Shown: positions 20,835 through 55,292 of the stretch, in pieces
Layout of the letters: every line of letters starts with the position of its first letter
How positions within the stretch are numbered: position 1 is the first letter of the stretch
Source: Eledone cirrhosa
Taxonomy: Eukaryota
Assembly: GCA_964016885.1 (NCBI GenBank)
Contig: OZ024740.1
Location: 171,864,001 to 171,928,000, forward strand
Direction: 5' to 3'
DNA: 64,000 bases
Position numbers and translations under genes: made by a program
The notes under the pieces: generated by a model
What the model was told of the DNA's origin: nothing
Databases searched by the model: none
Seen by the model: only the letters and a program-made list of their open reading frames with translations

Positions 20835-21299
20835 TACTTGATAGGTCAGAAGGAAAGCCTATAGCCCATATTCCCGGCCAATTACATTCGAAGAAAACAT
20901 GGCCGGCAAGATTTGACGAAGTGATTAGTACAATTTCTAAAGGGTTTGACACAACATGAGTGATAACAGGAAAAGAAATTCGAGAATAGAGAGTACACGA
21001 ATAGAAGTGGCATGAGCTCAGCAAGCTTCATGGATCAGAGGCCATGGTAGTATCAGCAAAAAATGCACACAGAATAAGTGTTACATAAAAAAATGTGGTT
21101 GGGGAGGGGGTATGCGTGTGTCTGTGTGTGTGTGTGTGTGTGTATGGATGTATTTATGTGTATTTCTACATGCTTATACAAATATGTATGCTTACAAATT
21201 CATAGTTATGGACGTTTGTGATTTATAAAGATAGGCATGTTATGTATGTGAGTGCATATTCAAATATATATACCTACTTCTTTATTTCTCTCTCACTCT

Positions 21300-21367
<68 letters not shown>

Positions 21368-21369
<2 letters not shown>

Positions 21370-24200
21370 TAATGTATACATGCTTGACCGTTTTACATAC
21401 AATGACTGTATCGGGAAAGAGGTCAGGAAAAACTACAGGACCACAGGACAGGACAACCTAGATAACATCAACGCCACGACTAAAAAAATAATGACTGGGC
21501 TAGAAATAGATGATAGGACAGAAATATATGTACCTAGAAAACCTCGGATATCCATTAAGGATCATAAATTAGACTTTAGAACTAATCTACCCGTTAGGTT
21601 AATAGCACTCTCCAAATCAGACATAGGTAGGACCAGCAAGAATATCATAGACAGAATACTACCGGTACTTAGGAACAAAACTAGGCTTAGCTTATTGACG
21701 CCCACTGAGGAGGTAATTGACTGGTTCTCGCTAATAGATAACAAACAGCAGGTACATTTTATTCAATTAGACATAGCGAATTACTACGCGTCAGTATCAC
21801 CTGTAATAGTGAACAAGGCCCTCATGAGTGCCATGGCCAAGTCCAACCTTACTAGAGAGGAGACTAGCCTCATAGTAGCACCTAGAAAGACGCTAATTAG
21901 ATTCGAAGACAAGTTATGGAAGAGGATGGACAGACCCGACAGTTTCGATATTACCATTGGGTCGAGCGACTCGGCACAGGTGACCGATCTGGTGGGGATA
22001 CATCTCCTCCATAGATTAGCGGAGGAGATCCCAGGGATCGGCGGAGGAATATACAGAGACGATGCACTTTTTACCTTCCGTTTCCTAAACCCCAGCCAGC
22101 TGGAGCGTATGAGGAAGCGCATATCGCATTTTTTAAGCAACACGGCTTATCCGTGACGATAGATCCTTACACTAAGACGGTCAATTTCCTGGACGTTACC
22201 TTGGAAATGAATACGGGCATCCACCGACCTTATCACAAGCCCAATGAGAACCTGCAATATGTGAACAGGCAATCGAACCGCCCCAAGTCAGTCATAGAAG
22301 CAATAGTTAAAGGGGTATCTAAACACGTATCCACCCTGTCGGCCAACGCAGACGTGTTCAAACAGCACGCCGACTATTATAATGAGGCACTGCGCAGAGC
22401 CGGTTACACAGACAGCATAGTGTATACCACAGACAGGGAAGAGCCTAGCGCCGAGGCATGCGGATACGGCAATAGCTGTGGCACTTCCACAGGTAGAAGA
22501 AATGACCCGGTAATAGCCTCCAAGAACACGAGTAGCAGGACAGTTCACCTTAAAGACACAGGACCGACAATAGGACAGACGAAGACACACACGGGCGCTA
22601 GACCACCCAGTACGCGTAGACAAAAGCCCGGCACGCACACCACATGCGTCGCGGTAACTAGAACTAGGGACAGGGTAACGACAAGTACGGCCGTGGCACC
22701 CGCTAGAGGGAACACCCGGCCTGGGAGCAGTGATATAGCCCTGACAACAGCACCACATAACATTAAAGAGACTAACAGTAGAGCCGACAATACAAAACGG
22801 AATACCTTAGTAAGTGAAAGGTGTAACTATGACGCCCACAGTAGACATATAGATAGAGGCAACATAGGGGACGTAATAATGGGCGGGTAAAACCCGAGAC
22901 GGACATCAGACCCAAGACACACTCACACTACTACACACACACGAAAGAACAAGACTATATCTAAGTCCGTTACATGGTTTAACGCGCCGTATTCTAAGCA
23001 TTATGCAGCAATGTACCAGGGCTTTTTTCCAAGCGTTAGACGAGTGCTTCCCGCCGTCGAACAGATACCACAAGATTTTCAACCGCCACGCGGTGAAGTT
23101 TTCCTTCTCCACAGCACCTAACATAGCCGACTACATGGCCAAAACCAACGCGGTAAAGATGGGGAATCTCAACCGTCAACCGCGGCGGCAGAATGACCGT
23201 CCATCGGAGCCCGGAGGGCCCCTCGAGGACCGGTCTTCCAACAACACGGCCCTCGCGGCGGCCGCCACGCCCGCGGAAGGCGACACAATCCAACGCCGGG
23301 AGGGAATGAGTGGCAGAGGAGAGACCAACACCCTGAGAATCGGGAGAAGGCTCTAGCAGATCAAGTGCCAGGCGTCCGAAATGAACAAAATAACGACAGA
23401 ACATGTAACTGCAGAGCGGGCACCCAGTGCCCCCTGCAGGGAAGATGCCTCACGAAGGGCCTGATATATAAATGTGTGGTTAGCACGCAAAATATAAAGC
23501 GCACCTACATCGGCGCAACATCCATGACCTTTAAATCGAGGGTGTATACACTGTACGCCCTTGACTGGAGTATCGTTCGGAACGCGAATGCATACTCGGC
23601 TGGAAGTAGAAAGTGTAGGCTATGCCTATACGAGGCCATGGAGATAATCAGACTGAAAGATGATGCGGTCAACCTGAAATCGGAAATAATCATGACGTGC
23701 AGACACCAGAGAAGGTGCACACTCTCCGCATGGAATCCACCGGTAAGCATGCGGCGGAGCGCATGCTTACCGGTGGATCAGATACCATACTCTGGTGACA
23801 GACACCAAGGGATCAGACACCATACTCTGATGACAGTATATGCCCCATGGGGTAAACCAAAATAACCCAAGATGCATAGCCGACACTGCACGTCACCTTA
23901 GGCAAGAACATCGCCTGAGCCGGGACAGGTTGACCCGGATTCTACTGACTTTCAGTCAAATACCTTACACCTATAGGACAACATACCTCAACCACAATGA
24001 CATACTCCAGTATGGCCGGTCCATGCACCTCCATACATGTGTACCTTTTCAATCGAGAATCCAGACTCTCCACGTATTCCATTTTGGAACACATATTATT
24101 TGCTCCGTATACAGGCCCAAGTGTACATCTCATACGCCTCCTGTGTACTAACTATCTCATACGCATACACGTCCCTTCTTTTTTATATATCCCTATGATG
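21368..24200 (+). mobile_element. Penelope-like retroelement, Naiad-type (RT + GIY-YIG), 5'-truncated and frameshifted
   Basis: RT motifs FIQLDIANYYASV, FDITIGSSDSAQVTDLVG and GIYRDDAL (ORF 21218-22156). Thumb NFLDVTL...PYHKPN (22153-). WFNAPYS near 22975. Endonuclease CNCR...CPLQGRC, IYKC...YIGATSMTFKSR, CRLCLYE, CRH (23365-23865). Starts at (TA)n. Confidence 0.9.
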
Positions 24201-25987: not shown

Positions 25988-25989
<2 letters not shown>

Positions 25990-26318
25990 CGTTTCTGAAT
26001 TTGTTTAGCAAGATTCTTTATCTGAAATCGTGTGTTGAAACCGATATTGTTATACTTTGGGAGGGTCATTTTGCCAATAAGAAACACACTCACCAGTTGC
26101 TTTCACTTCAATTTATTATATATTTATAAATTTATAAATTTACAAATCTACAAACTTATAAATTTCTGGTTGGTTGGTTCCACAACCAGATAGTTGTTTA
26201 TATATAGTCATAGTCCTTTCGTCACACACTCTGTGACCTCTTCAGTGACTGGGGATTCCTTTCTTTGTTTCTGTGCGTTTCCTTTCTTCTGTCCTACGCC
26301 ATTTTGTTTCTGTGTGTG

Positions 26319-26320
<2 letters not shown>
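25988..26320 (-). mobile_element. 3'-end/pLTR fragment of the same PLE family as 48911-52012
   Basis: Same terminus ttcgtttctgaattt next to (TA)n, colinear with 48911-49225, contains an HHR. Confidence 0.85.
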
Positions 26321-26346
<26 letters not shown>

Positions 26347-26354
<8 letters not shown>

Positions 26355-27121
26355 AATATGGGTGAGAAGAATACTGCTGGTTGCACATGGATAACATGTT
26401 ATAATATGAGTCCCTCATCAGTGATTTACCAAACGATCATGGGTATTTCATTGCATTAAAAATCATATACCTCACGTTGGAGCGATAATAACTAAAATAA
26501 GTTATTAGGACAATAGAAACGCGTAAAGCGAGTGAGACAAGTAAACAACACAGGGGAAGCTAACCGAAGATGGAAATAAACACAAGCAACATAGTTATTC
26601 TTTCAGCATAAGCTGTGTGAATATATGAGCGAGTCGACAACAGACCTTTCGCTAGTGAATCCGGTGTTAGAAAGAATGAAAACCGTTTTCCCAGCGAACG
26701 GGAGGAAGAAAGAAGGGGAGAAACAGGGACTGAGTGAGTGGGAGTGCGAGGAAGAGGTCAGTAGAGAGAAAGAGTTAACTGACATGGCAGAGGGGACTAA
26801 AGAAAGTAAGAGAAACAGAGAGAACGAGGGAGCAGTAAGAGAGAAAGAGAGAAACACAGAATTGCAGTTTGGGTAAATATATGAAAAATATGGGTGAGAA
26901 GAATACTGCTGGTTGCACATGGATAACATGTTATAAAATGAGTCCCTCATCAGTGATTTACCAAACGATCATGGGTATTTCATTGCATTAAAAATCATAT
27001 ACCTCACGTTGGAGCGATAATAACTAAAATAAGTTATTAGGACAATAGAAACGCGTAAAGCGAGTGAGACAAGTAAACAACACAGGGGGAAGCTAACCGA
27101 AGATGGAAATAAACACAAGCA

Positions 27122-27122
<1 letters not shown>
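26347..27122. repeat. ~245-bp direct repeats 530 bp apart (pLTR-like)
   Basis: atatgaaaaatatgggtgagaag...cacaagcaac at 26347-26590 and 26877-27122. Confidence 0.85.
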
Positions 27123-27155
<33 letters not shown>

Positions 27156-27156
<1 letters not shown>

Positions 27157-27755
27157 AATTAGAATTAGTGCTCTGAAATAGCCATATATATATGAATGTA
27201 TATATAGTGTATTTTGCAATACACTTTATGCTTAATTAAAAGCATTTTGAAGACCGTATGCTATTGTTTTAGAGTAGTGACAGACTCACTTACTTTAATT
27301 TCAGCAAACAGGGGGAGATAAAGCTGACAAGGCCTTGTTTCTGCATTTATTGATGCTTATCAAAGCCAACTACTCCCTCCCGTCTGCTGAAATTACGGAT
27401 GTTATGTTCTTATAGAATTCTAGTAAATAATCAGGAACTGATTATACAGAGCGGTTGCCGGTCAAGCAGAAATAAAAAATTAGAATTGGTGCTCTGAAAT
27501 AGCCATATATATATGAATGTATATATAGTGTATTTTGCAATACACTTTACTAGAATTCTATAAGAACATAACATCCGTAATTTCAGCAGACGGGAGGGAG
27601 TGGTTGGCTTTGATAAGCATCAATAAATGCAGAAACAAGTCCTTGTCAGCTTTATCTCCCCCTGTTTGCTGAAATTAAAGTAAGTGAGTCTGTCACTACT
27701 CTAAAACAATAGCATACGGTCTTCAAAATGCTTTTAATTAAGCATAAAGTGTATT
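27156..27755 (-). mobile_element. Sister retrozyme-like element (~321-bp unit; ~1.2 copies on - plus an inverted partial copy at 27546-27755) in (TA)n
   Basis: Direct repeat agaatt(a/g)gtgctctgaaatagcc at 27161 and 27482. Shares gagcggttgccggtc, gctctgaaatagc, cattttgaagacc and caggaactg with the 310-bp unit. Contains HHR variants at 27322-27367 (-) and 27606-27651 (+). Confidence 0.8.
27322..27367 (-). ncRNA. Hammerhead ribozyme variant with U3-A8 core
   Basis: Minus strand reads ggct-TTGATAA-gcat caataa atgc-a-GAAA-caaggccttg-TC-agct. Stem III is the palindrome ACAAGGCCTTGT. The motif is enclosed by the helix aatttcagcagacggg/cctgtttgctgaaatt. Confidence 0.7.
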
Positions 27756-27758
27756 TAC

Positions 27759-40117: not shown

Positions 40118-40150
<33 letters not shown>

Positions 40151-40153
<3 letters not shown>

Positions 40154-43100
40154 TATAGACATAGAATATTCGAAAATATTCTGTATGTTTATAATAAACA
40201 TTTTGAAGACCTAATCGCTATAGAATAGAATACGTCACGTATTACAATTAGATTCTCGATAAAAGCAAGGGAAGTAATCTACGCGTTTCATTCTCGTTAG
40301 AAATCATCAGGACTACATATCCAGTGCTTTTATCGAGAATGACACAGCTAGAGACTTATAGAATACTTAGCTGTGTACAGGAACTGGTTTGAAAGAGCGG
40401 TTGCCGGTCCGGCAGAAATTAGAAATTGGAATAAATGCTCTGAAATAGCGATGTATATGTGAATATAGACATAGAATATTCGAAAATATTCTGTATGTTT
40501 ATAATAAACATTTTGAAGACCTAATCGCTATAGAATAGAATACGTCACGTATTACAATTAGATTCTCGATAAAAGCAAGGGAAGTAATCTACGCGTTTCA
40601 TTCTCGTTAGAAATCATCAGGACTACATATCCAGTGCTTTTATCGAGAATGACACAGCTAGAGACTTATAGAATACTTAGCTGTGTACAGGAACTGGTTT
40701 GAAAGAGCGGTTGCCGGTCCGGCAGAAATTAGAAATTGGAATAAATGCTCTGAAATAGCGATGTATATGTGAATATAGCGATTAGGTCTTCAAAATGTTT
40801 ATTATAAACATACAGAATATTTTCGAATATTCTATGTCTATATTCACATATACATCGCTATTTCAGAGCATTTATTCCAATTTCTAATTTCTGCCGGACC
40901 GGCAACCGCTCTTTCAAACCAGTTCCTGTACACAGCTAAGTATTCTATAAGTCTCTAGCTGTGTCATTCTCGATAAAAGCACTGGATATGTAGTCCTGAT
41001 GATTTCTAACGAGAATGAAACGCGTAGATTACTTCCCTTGCTTTTATCGAGAATCTAATTGTAATACGTGACGTATTCTATTCTATAGCGATTAGGTCTT
41101 CAAAATGTTTATTATAAACATACAGAATATTTTCGAATATTCTATGTCTATATTCACATATACATCGCTATTTCAGAGCATTTATTCCAATTTCTAATTT
41201 CTGCCGGACCGGCAACCGCTCTTTCAAACCAGTTCCTGTACACAGCTAAGTATTCTATAAGTCTCTAGCTGTGTCATTCTCGATAAAAGCACTGGATATG
41301 TAGTCCTGATGATTTCTAACGAGAATGAAACGCGTAGATTACTTCCCTTGCTTTTATCGAGAATCTAATTGTAATACGTGACGTATTCTATTCTATAGCG
41401 ATTAGGTCTTCAAAATGTTTATTATAAACATACAGAATATTTTCGAATATTCTATGTCTATATTCACATATACATCGCTATTTCAGAGCATTTATTCCAA
41501 TTTCTAATTTCTGCCGGACCGGCAACCGCTCTTTCAAACCAGTTCCTGTACACAGCTAAGTATTCTATAAGTCTCTAGCTGTGTCATTCTCGATAAAAGC
41601 ACTGGATATGTAGTCCTGATGATTTCTAACGAGAATGAAACGCGTAGATTACTTCCCTTGCTTTTATCGAGAATCTAATTGTAATACGTGACGTATTCTA
41701 TTCTATAGCGACTAGGTCTTCAAAATGTTTATTATAAACATACAGAATATTTTCGAATATTCTATGTCTATATTCACATATACATCGCTATTTCAGAGCA
41801 TTTATTCCAATTTCTAATTTCTGCCGGACCGGCAACCGCTCTTTCAAACCAGTTCCTGTACACAGCTAAGTATTCTATAAGTCTCTAGCTGTGTCATTCT
41901 CGATAAAAGCACTGGATATGTAGTCCTGATGATTTCTAACGAGAATGAAACGCGTAGATTACTTCCCTTGCTTTTATCGAGAATCTAATTGTAATACGTG
42001 ACGTATTCTATTCTATAGCGATTAGGTCTTCAAAATGTTTATTATAAACATACAGAATATTTTCGAATATTCTATGTCTATATTCACATATACATCGCTA
42101 TTTCAGAGCATTTATTCCAATTTCTAATTTCTGCCGGACCGGCAACCGCTCTTTCAAACCAGTTCCTGTACACAGCTAAGTATTCTATAAGTCTCTAGCT
42201 GTGTCATTCTCGATAAAAGCACTGGATATGTAGTCCTGATGATTTCTAACGAGAATGAAACGCGTAGATTACTTCCCTTGCTTTTATCGAGAATCTAATT
42301 GTAATACGTGACGTATTCTATTCTATAGCGATTAGGTCTTCAAAATGTTTATTATAAACATACAGAATATTTTCGAATATTCTATGTCTATATTCACATA
42401 TACATCGCTATTTCAGAGCATTTATTCCAATTTCTAATTTCTGCCGGACCGGCAACCGCTCTTTCAAACCAGTTCCTGTACACAGCTAAGTATTCTATAA
42501 GTCTCTAGCTGTGTCATTCTCGATAAAAGCACTGGATATGTAGTCCTGATGATTTCTAACGAGAATGAAACGCGTAGATTACTTCCCTTGCTTTTATCGA
42601 GAATCTAATTGTAATACGTGACGTATTCTATTCTATAGCGATTAGGTCTTCAAAATGTTTATTATAAACATACAGAATATTTTCGAATATTCTATGTCTA
42701 TATTCACATATACATCGCTATTTCAGAGCATTTATTCCAATTTCTAATTTCTGCCGGACCGGCAACCGCTCTTTCAAACCAGTTCCTGTACACAGCTAAG
42801 TATTCTATAAGTCTCTAGCTGTGTCATTCTCGATAAAAGCACTGGATATGTAGTCCTGATGATTTCTAACGAGAATGAAACGCGTAGATTACTTCCCTTG
42901 CTTTTATCGAGAATCTAATTGTAATACGTGACGTATTCTATTCTATAGCGATTAGGTCTTCAAAATGTTTATTATAAACATACAGAATATTTTCGAATAT
43001 TCTATGTCTATATTCACATATACATCGCTATTTCAGAGCATTTATTCCAATTTCTAATTTCTGCCGGACCGGCAACCGCTCTTTCAAACCAGTTCCTGTA

Positions 43101-43669
43101 CACAGCTAAGTATTCTATAAGTCTCTAGCTGTGTCATTCTCGATAAAAGCACTGGATATGTAGTCCTGATGATTTCTAACGAGAATGAAACGCGTAGATT
43201 ACTTCCCTTGCTTTTATCGAGAATCTAATTGTAATACGTGACGTATTCTATTCTATAGCGATTAGGTCTTCAAAATGTTTATTATAAACATACAGAATAT
43301 TTTCGAATATTCTATGTCTATATTCACATATACATCGCTATTTCAGAGCATTTATTCCAATTTCTAATTTCTGCCGGACCGGCAACCGCTCTTTCAAACC
43401 AGTTCCTGTACACAGCTAAGTATTCTATAAGTCTCTAGCTGTGTCATTCTCGATAAAAGCACTGGATATGTAGTCCTGATGATTTCTAACGAGAATGAAA
43501 CGCGTAGATTACTTCCCTTGCTTTTATCGAGAATCTAATTGTAATACGTGACGTATTCTATTCTATAGCGATTAGGTCTTCAAAATGTTTATTATAAACA
43601 TACAGAATATTTTCGAATATTCTATGTCTATATTCACATATACATCGCTATTTCAGAGCATTTATTCCA

Positions 43670-43672
<3 letters not shown>
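40151..43672 (+). mobile_element. Retrozyme-like tandem array: 310-bp unit with one type I hammerhead ribozyme per unit (2 inverted copies at 40151-40778, ~9.3 + copies at 40774-43672), flanked by (TA)n
   Basis: The motif gtagtcCTGATGAtttctaacgagaatGAAAcgcgTAgattac starts at 40990, 41300, 41610, 41920, 42230, 42540, 42850, 43160 and 43470 (period 310). Its reverse complement lies at 40274-40316 and 40584-40626. Units are near-identical and have no ORF. Confidence 0.88.
40990..41032 (+). ncRNA. Type I hammerhead ribozyme (first + copy of the array)
   Basis: Stem I gtagtc/gattac; core CTGATGA; stem II ttct-aacg-agaa; GAAA; palindromic stem III ACGCGT; predicted cleavage after GUA at 41026. Stem I is extended by a perfect 16-bp helix attctcgataaaagca (40966-40981)/tgcttttatcgagaat (41039-41054). 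Confidence 0.88.
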
Positions 43673-43705
<33 letters not shown>

Positions 43706-48706: not shown

Positions 48707-52012
<3,306 letters not shown>

Positions 52013-52266
52013 TTATATTATATATATTCATTAAAACAGACACCAAACACAATTAATACATTAAATGCTGATTTACGACCGTTCCATCACCTTCTGGGAC
52101 TTTTCAAAACCAGTTACTTAATAATAAATCCTCACCAAATAAATCAACAGCCAACAGTTACAGAAAATGTTTACATTTAAACAAAAAAAATTGTGTAAAC
52201 ATTCTCTGTAACTGCTGGCTGTTGATTTCTTTGGTGAGATTATAATGAGGATTTATTATCAAATAA

Positions 52267-53249: not shown

Positions 53250-55292
53250 ATATTAGTCTAACGACTCCATTTATAACATAAACTTGGTCTTGTCTTTGCA
53301 TGAAATTGTTCTTCTCGCTCCACATAACGACGTATTATCCTCGCTTTTTTCCCGTTCATTGCCAGGGAACGTCTTCACGAACCAAAATATCGTCTTCCTG
53401 TTTTCGTTCGGTTGCAACGTTTCTCGAAATATTTACTTCTGCGTTCACAGATTACTCTCAGTTCAATTTGAATGGCAAATTCCTGTTTCATCGATTTTCT
53501 CGATAACCATGGAAGCTTGTAGCTTGAAAGTCGAGGCAACGCCTCCTCGGGTCATTTTGCATAACTGTGTAAATTTTCGCTACACCTACTTAAATATACA
53601 ACGTCCGACCCCTTCCAATTTATATAGTATATATATATATATATATATATAAGAGAGTATTGAAGTTTGCTTGAAGCATTGTGGAACAATAAGTAAATAT
53701 TTATAAGTCGTTTGGAAGCCTCGACAATGCAAATGGGTAAATCTCCGGGTAACAAGGTCCGGTGGTGGAGAGAGAGATATGTAAGTGGGTGTACGTTGAG
53801 ATGCGTGGTGTGTATAAGATGTGTGAGATGTGTAGAATGAAGGGAAGAGTAAAAGAATAAAAATAATAATAACAACACAAGAGAGAGAGTTACCTTGGGA
53901 GAGATTTAATAGTCCCTATATATTTCGGATTCACATCCATCAACTGGGGTTTTTTCCGGGGTGGGGGAAAAGGTTGTCTGTCGGAAAACTCGGAACGCGT
54001 CTTTCGCTGTTTGTTGATTAGAATATTCTAATTGAACTCACAATCTTTCGATTGCAAGCCCATATATATATAAACGTTTCTTTGAGGCTTTCCCGTCTAT
54101 CTACTAACGAGCATATTTTCAAGGACCATTCCACATATTACAATGAAGCTCTTGCTCGGAGTAGATTTGTCGATAAGGTAGCATATACAGAGTACGAGAA
54201 TAGACCTAGAAGAAATAGATCCGGACGCATTATATGGTATAACCCACCATATAATATGGAGGTGGCCACAGCATTAGCTAAGATCTTTCTCTCCCTTATT
54301 ATGAAACATTTTCCCCCTACACATAAATATAATAACATTTTTAATAGAAATACTATTAAAATTTCTTACTCTACGACTCCTAACCTTGCACATAACATCA
54401 CAGCTTCAAATTTAGCTAAACTACCTAGCCGTAGGAACACGTGTAACCCTGTAGTTAGTACTAACTGTAATTTTAGGAATCGGGTTTACTGCCCCCTATC
54501 CGGGAAATGTCTCTCTAGTAATATTGTCTACAAATGTAAGGTTGAAACACCCACGTCCCGTAGGGCCTACATAGAGTTAACCGCCAATAGATTCAAGCAG
54601 CGTCTTTACATGCATACCCATTCTTTTCGTTACCCTTTAAGAAGTAATATGAGGTCACTTTCAGCTTATATCTGGAGTCTAAAAGACAACCACACCCAAT
54701 ATAAGTTACACTGGGAGATCCTAGCTGGGGCTAGATCGTATAACGGAAATAAAAGTCCATGTGACTTCTGCGCCGCTGATGCCCTGGAAATACTCTACGC
54801 CAAAGACCACATCTTAAACAAAAAATCTGAGGCAATTTCGGCTTGTAAACGTAAATTGCACAAAACTTTCCTGTATTACAGCCCCACATTTTACTCTAAC
54901 AGATAGTACGAACTATACGCGGATATTTTACGTCTTGATGTGGTGGCTAAGTATATGTTATGTTTATACCATTACTTATTTGTATAGGTAAGTATATATT
55001 ACCTGTATGTTTTGTGAAGGTACGTATACTTTCTCGTACGTATATTTGATTGTATATGTTATGGCGTATATATTATATATTCTAGTACATATGCTTTTGG
55101 TTATGTGTATACGTGAGTTTTGCGTCTGTGTGAGTATGCGGGTTCGTATGTATGTAGGGTGTGTGTATATGTGTACTTTGTGTTTTGGTTGACGTATGTC
55201 TCCGAATATATCTGTATTTAGATGTCGGTATGTGTGTGCGCTTGTTATATACATATTTATTTATTTATATACGTTTATTTAATTATATGTAT

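Follow-up and report, generated by a model that had tools for sequence, protein, structure and literature searches.

Insertions of EN+ Penelope-type elements (PLEs) are described as carrying an inverted 5'-truncated arm, a tail that is often present at one end only, a bias toward microsatellites, and target duplications of 8-10 bp; the tail has been ascribed to endonuclease resolution and the inversion to self-priming, and the elements are described as acting in trans on pLTR-flanked DNA (PMC8557442, PMC3846280). For PAc, the autonomous Poseidon PLE of Anolis carolinensis studied by Frangieh et al. 2024 (PMC11167929), two internal start sites of reverse transcription were reported in vitro, both strands of an AT-rich target were cut and extended, and the protein was predicted to be a dimer. 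According to the same report, the ribozyme of PAc was dispensable for internal initiation, and the main substrate was unprocessed RNA. Metazoan non-LTR retrozymes are described as non-coding tandem units of a few hundred bp, each containing a type I hammerhead (PMC7229834, PMC4209133, 10.64898/2026.07.22.740005). They were proposed to move as circles copied by PLE enzymes into tandem cDNA (PMC4209133; Cervera and de la Pena 2020, PMC7229834), and their PLE origin was argued by Li, Clavereau, and Pollet (10.64898/2026.07.22.740005). Hammerheads with a palindromic helix III are described as acting as dimers (PMC4209133), and eight of nine Xenopus retrozymes gave no cleavage in vitro (10.64898/2026.07.22.740005). 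The route of tandem and inverted PLE insertion, and the movement of retrozymes via circular RNA, are treated as open in these accounts (PMC8557442, PMC7229834, 10.64898/2026.07.22.740005).

A back-to-back retrozyme array and its sister

We studied a 64,000-nt stretch of the 3.0-Gb Eledone cirrhosa genome (hereafter, the window), which is rich in TA and TG microsatellites. A back-to-back insertion occupies positions 40151-43673, with both 3' ends facing outward and an (AT)15 target tract on each side (left, 40121..40150; right, 43674..43703; neither with a strand). The short inverted arm (40151..40778, minus strand) holds 2.0 units, and its 3' end, which lacks a tail, is at a position referred to here as site A (...tattca|tatata). 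The long arm (40774..43673, plus strand) holds 9.4 units of 310 nt, all identical except for one single-unit change, and its 3' end is at site B (...ccaattt|atatat, with the last t at 43673; 43672 and 43673 are indistinguishable as the array end against the TA run). The two 5'-truncated arms are joined through a 5-nt microhomology at 40774..40778. Site A is read through in the last unit of the long arm (43633..43636, plus strand) and is followed by the tail that extends to site B (43637..43673, plus strand); the A end of the minus arm is thus located 37 nt upstream of the B end. The tail is 37 nt long in the window array and 34-35 nt long in the common form, and contains a motif that is conserved across all three subfamilies of the element.

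The last type I hammerhead of the array (43470..43512, plus strand), with a cut predicted from sequence reading after 43506, consists of helix I (43470-43475/43507-43512), a CUGAUGA core, GAAA, and a palindromic helix III of the dimer type. Helices I and II were recovered in the centroid fold, while a U-U at the base of helix II is a point against the explanation favoured below. An Rfam scan of the window returned nothing at the gathering score, hammerheads included. The B end of the array is 166-167 nt past the predicted cut, close to the ~166 nt given in a first-pass annotation of this DNA, and the A position is 130 nt past it.

Retrozymes are expected to form tandem units of ~150-450 bp with many dispersed copies, and the array, with its 310-nt units, does so. 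A type I hammerhead was recognised per unit by sequence reading and the centroid fold, and no stop-to-stop frames of at least 120 aa were found in 40151-43673; being non-coding, the array encodes neither the RT nor the GIY-YIG domain of an autonomous PLE. A unit motif upstream of the cut, common to the sister family, has 18,504 exact matches in the genome. As in PLE insertions, there is a tail of 34-37 nt on one end, the target is AT-rich or a microsatellite, and an inverted 5'-truncated arm is present (20 of the first 25 insertions on C1 are two-armed). By its structure, then, the array is a retrozyme that appears to have been inserted in the fashion of a PLE, with a mobilising partner and an RNA stage that we infer.

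The sister element, with a unit of ~321 nt, is arranged in the same window as a long arm (27156..27549, minus strand) that ends at site B and an inverted arm without a tail (27546..27758, plus strand) that stops ~20 nt short of the usual site A. The minus-strand terminus, ...ctaattt|atatat at 27156, is the base homologous to the B end of the array. Both of these (AT)n junctions had been pointed out in the first-pass annotation, and both were confirmed. The hammerhead-like motif of the sister element (27320-27367, minus strand) has a UUGAUAA core, a 12-nt palindromic helix III, which is longer than that of the array, and a predicted cut after 27326, 170 nt before the end. U3 and A8 replace C3 and G8, with pairing still possible, a combination known as a functional variant. 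A 250-nt direct repeat (99% identity; 26342-26591 and 26874-27124) adjoins the sister element and contains CTGATGA and GAAA motifs in a hammerhead-like order on the minus strand. Homologous A and B sites are used by the sister family and by an older subfamily. The hammerhead region diverges among subfamilies; the region comprising A, the tail, and B is conserved. Folding of the A-B region revealed no structure common to the array, the sister element, and the PLE of the window (z −3.0, −1.1, and +0.3, respectively).

Two junction sites, one at each end

A genome-wide search on the plus strand yielded 751 B ends and 720 A ends of the window's subfamily, while the pattern for ends at the ribozyme cut had no match on either strand and the reversed control for the B junction pattern gave 0 matches, compared to the 751 real ones. 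The reverse-strand A and B counts, which are inflated by gap variants, were not used; overall, the family has roughly 1,500 A ends and as many B ends. Among the listed B junctions (n = 56), 37 are 2 nt upstream of that of the window, 8 are at its exact base, and 11 are 1-4 nt downstream, so the exact junction of the window is a minority form. Of 50 listed A junctions, 25 stop at TTCA, 8 stop earlier, and 17 retain the next C.

The same two positions were recovered when the first 25 insertions on C1 were taken as a sample, using an anchor upstream of the cut and without regard to their ends. Of 46 arms, 45 terminate at A (22) or B (23, one row being an internal fragment, L151), and 43 abut TA runs. 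In the complete set of arms, from which duplicates and edge-cut arms were removed (201 kept, the 198 of at least 60 nt being counted), 16 have other termini; 13 of these belong to the old subfamily, in which alignments are broken.

The first-pass annotation had proposed that reverse transcription starts from one fixed internal point of the RNA, away from the ribozyme-generated end, and had predicted a sharp junction peak at ...aattt|(AT)n. Initiation away from the ribozyme end is borne out by the census: junctions were neither random nor clustered at the cut, and ends at the cut were therefore rejected as a candidate. The predicted peak was also found, as the cluster of 751 ends at B near ...aattt, though with the exact window base in only 8 of 56 cases. 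The initiation points are fixed and internal, as proposed; a single site was rejected since there are two clusters, A and B, one for each end of an inverted insertion. Each of the elements named in that annotation has a second, different fixed end that was overlooked.

The two sites are paired in a nearly strict manner. All 38 outward-facing pairs found in a two-pattern census of C1, 0-111 Mb, consisted of one A and one B end, and this census could have shown AA and BB pairs. It left 26 of 102 ends unpaired; when 12 of these were fetched, 6 turned out to be A+B pairs, 5 were single arms, and 1 was cut by the region edge. In the C1 sample taken without regard to ends, 19 of 19 inverted insertions were A+B. 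Across three subfamilies, 77 pairs (a set found in part using B-containing queries) comprised 59 AB, 3 BB, all in the sister family, no AA, and 15 with one unclassified end. In one further two-arm set of 49 pairs, 28 had been fetched because they were A+B and are not independent, and L230 was cut at the edge. A symmetric cut drawing two RNAs at random should yield AA or BB pairs half the time, and often unlike arms. A+B pairs with similar arms are what one RNA held across two active sites yields; the same outcome would follow if events took place in a set order on RNAs of a single locus.

The position of the A junctions is informative about priming. In the unit, site A is followed by an internal TA-like sequence of 8-9 nt, and the 17 of 50 A junctions that retain the C fit pairing-assisted priming. 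The A position is not fixed by pairing alone, since the remaining 33 of 50 junctions end ahead of a C located on the 5' side of the internal TA stretch, and since the units of the window interrupt this stretch yet use the same base.

The internal TA-like sequence and the junctions keeping the C would also be accounted for if the (TA)n flanks had been added by a telomerase-like RT, or if A ends were later deletions between the internal TA stretch and the flank. This is hardly probable. Target duplications of ~9-13 nt could be read in three insertions, L158, L006, and L163, by means of non-alternating letters that recur in both flanks (elsewhere, flanks of pure or periodic TA mask any duplication), and L041 resides in an AT-rich target lacking (TA)n. 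The 33 A junctions that stop before the C speak against the same explanation, and deletions should have left many BB pairs, of which none were seen among the 38. The ~9-13-nt duplications fit staggered nicks in a pre-existing tract. Since two sites are used, one at each end of an inverted insertion, both cut DNA ends must prime, and we consider two-site twin priming very likely.

Origin of the arms and nature of the template

The two arms of an insertion are alike. When both arms exceeded 640 nt, the majority haplotype was common to both in 30 of 31 insertions, versus 166 of 930 comparisons (17.8%) across insertions; 12 of the insertions with matching arms have an uncommon haplotype. It is thus likely that both arms derive from one RNA molecule, with the qualification that RNAs from one source locus would equally give matching arms.

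Haplotypes shared by both arms, together with microhomology at the join, would also result from a single priming event followed by fold-back or self-priming, as has been proposed for rotifer PLEs (PMC3846280). In 31 of 59 pairs, the B arm does include the whole of the A arm. However, the A arm exceeds the B arm in length in 28 of 59 (23 of 49 in another two-arm set), and in 22 of 59 each arm has sequence that is missing from the other. Since sequence absent from a template cannot appear in its copy, fold-back of the cDNA fails: its cDNA version is largely refuted by the arm lengths, and we regard the explanation as a whole as highly improbable. Central joins, as judged from BLAST-based overlaps, share at least 2 nt in 28 of 48 cases, compared to 18% expected, and 10 carry extra bases.

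Under two-site twin priming, the next question is what RNA the two ends copy. At least one intact cut site is crossed by 102 of 111 arms, with a maximum of 27, and only 1 of 110 5' ends is within 5 nt of the cut, the others being spread around the unit. This excludes the cleaved linear monomer as the template, since it could give no more than 130-167 nt, with 5' ends located at the cut. Reverse transcription through intact hammerhead junctions, with the need for a circular or uncleaved template that follows from it, was part of the first-pass annotation and agrees with these counts. In the window's subfamily, unit positions 156-280 have a higher density of 5' ends, and few fall at 125-155, around the ribozyme.

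Forty-nine arrays of up to 28 units fall into 25 haplotypes, many of them private and nearly all fixed throughout the array. To fix a new variant in each unit of a long array, one unit has to be copied repeatedly, presumably and most simply by rolling-circle reverse transcription. Several variants are found in a part of the units. In L227, A109G is present in 7 of 7 units of one arm and in 2 units of the other; in L211, C37T is confined to the outer unit of both arms; in L193, L197, and L220, variants are repeated in 2-3 units. These variants do not fit a pure monomer circle; they may be explained by later DNA events, template switches, or multimeric templates. In 18 arrays examined, no periodic variant pattern that would prove an oligomeric circle was found.

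The partial-unit variants of these five loci are what would be expected if two-site twin priming took place on an uncleaved linear multimer transcribed from an existing array, with a minor role for the ribozyme. Other observations point the same way: two haplotypes cover 23 of the 49 arrays, T31C is found in a single unit of each of two arrays that share a haplotype (L200 and L216), and the anole PLE is reported to dispense with its ribozyme and to use predominantly unprocessed RNA (PMC11167929). A linear multimer can neither exceed the length of its source array nor fix a new variant in all units, and the 25 haplotypes, many private, among arrays of up to 28 units imply that a monomer bottleneck is often needed. 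We therefore view a linear multimer as an unlikely usual template, and consider, with some reservation, that the template RNA is usually a monomer circle. Contigs of four read sets of unspecified type were aligned with one unit. A closed 340-nt contig from read sets X2 and X3 was dropped as evidence for circles because a tandem DNA array collapses alike. Contigs of a further read set, X1, which may come from the source organism, have loose TA ends at A and B.

Arrays could also have grown after short insertions, by unequal crossing-over or slippage in DNA, followed by homogenisation through conversion across the palindrome, a route proposed in 10.64898/2026.07.22.740005. The multi-unit variants of L193, L197, and L220 may be DNA duplications, and L211 fits arm-to-arm conversion. 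Such growth is at odds with two-arm insertions in which each arm is longer than 2 units (32 of 49, in a family that is 98-100% identical), and with single-unit changes that stayed unconverted while haplotypes are fixed across the inversion. Growth in DNA is accordingly a very unlikely source of the arrays.

Taken as a whole, the best explanation, and one that we hold to be probable, is twin priming from both ends of a (TA)n break on one RNA, probably a 310-nt circle, by a Penelope-type protein. The RNA would be cut by dimer-type hammerheads and closed into a monomer circle, and a PLE protein, probably a dimer, would bind the conserved A-tail-B region in trans. Both strands of the (TA)n tract would then be cut, with staggered nicks ~10-13 nt apart creating two 3' ends, one of which would engage site A and the other site B. 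Each polymerase would go on to copy 0.3 to 27 units, with the trailing enzyme displacing the cDNA of the other, and the two cDNA ends would finally be joined through microhomology. A stricter version, in which a PLE dimer holds one ribozyme-made 310-nt circle across both active sites and the polymerases start at A and B and circle simultaneously, is more tentative, with a chance slightly short of even. If it is true, simultaneous circling by two polymerases makes multi-kilobase palindromic satellites in one step, and a single mechanism accounts for why PLE tails are one-sided, for the inverted arm, and for the arrays of retrozymes.

Candidate partners and comparison with known systems

The window contains a PLE whose ends are organised in a similar manner. 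One arm (48911..50284, minus strand) ends at its own site B against (AT)n, and the inverted arm (50285..52021, plus strand) ends (~52021) at its own site A, 57 nt upstream of B. A short copy (25988..26319, minus strand) also ends at site B; the copies at 48911 and 25988 do have one (AT)n-abutting end in common, as had been noticed in the first-pass annotation. The inverted arm contains RT remnants and a GIY-YIG domain at 51215-51637 (PF01541, E 9e-5, above cut-off), and a minimal hammerhead core is located at 51840; Pfam detected no RT domain in the PLE fragments of the window. In endonuclease-chosen loci, ends of this PLE type comprised 17 A, 15 B, and 3 other, and five inverted copies carry A+B. 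The PLE thus follows the same two-end rule as the retrozyme, with sites 57 nt apart.

This PLE is at most a candidate mobiliser of the retrozyme: its tail is 57 nt compared to 35 nt, and its best copies are only ~90% alike. When translated PLE fragments of the window were compared with the window and the fetched loci, no partner PLE continuous with the conserved region was found, only neighbours and nested insertions, and no autonomous PLE bearing the retrozyme's tail turned up in these sequences. A read-through pattern for the PLE had 21 matches, nearly all of them microsatellite flanks, and L267 was without a long frame.

Several further observations concern PLE-like sequences. Two more broken RT/endonuclease-like frames, at 21206-23865 and 54022-54906, are unlike the 48911 family and gave no Pfam match at E 0.1; their relatives are common in the fetched loci. 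The sequence ATATCG, or a one-letter variant, occurs a few bases past site A and is followed by TTTCA in both the retrozyme (43629-43650) and the PLE (48957-48975, minus strand), a weak likeness. At L164:592-2089 (C1:22609391-22610888), the minus arm consists of ~55 nt of sister-family retrozyme and ~880 nt of 48911-type PLE ending at the B site of the PLE, while the plus arm is a retrozyme ending at B. This single case reflects either a switch of template between PLE and retrozyme RNAs, in which event a mobiliser would be identified, or a PLE insertion that came later and was accompanied by target deletion. At L007, L154, and L041, retrozymes are found in the TA tract that ends a PLE copy or within a PLE-like tail; retrozymes and PLEs accumulate in one another's flanks.

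This young family has recorded the reaction many times, with exact start sites, a near-strict A+B rule, and a built-in haplotype barcode, which indicates a single source for both arms. It also reveals how kilobase palindromic satellites can arise de novo, and makes a general proposal on retrozyme movement testable at the bench with sharp predictions. The PLE tail, internal initiation, the one-sided tail, and the inverted arm are each known already from print, while the junction counts, the A+B pairing rule, and the haplotype test are new for a retrozyme; our search of the open-access literature found no retrozyme junction map, arm-pairing test, or haplotype test.

In L1 twin priming, both nicked strands prime, and the inversion shows microhomology where the arms are joined. 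L1 arms are non-overlapping, and the position of the second site varies. In the family studied here, by contrast, the two sites are constant, at a distance of 35 nt, and the arms have overlapping sequence. PAc, as that system is described, is alike in several respects: two internal starts bound a 30-40-nt tail that lies downstream of a hammerhead, the target is AT-rich, and ends are absent from the ribozyme cut, the cutting and extension of both strands having been observed in vitro for PAc and read from junctions here. Unlike PAc, which is autonomous, was tested with linear RNA, and has the same start site on both strands, the element described here is non-coding and multi-unit, and its ends are nearly always one A and one B. 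With respect to the self-priming view of EN+ PLEs, the arm lengths and haplotypes favour two RNA-templated arms. With respect to metazoan retrozymes as so far described, the points of entry on the unit have been measured here, as have the inverted arrangement of twin arms and the arrays of a single haplotype, while cleavage and circles are predicted.
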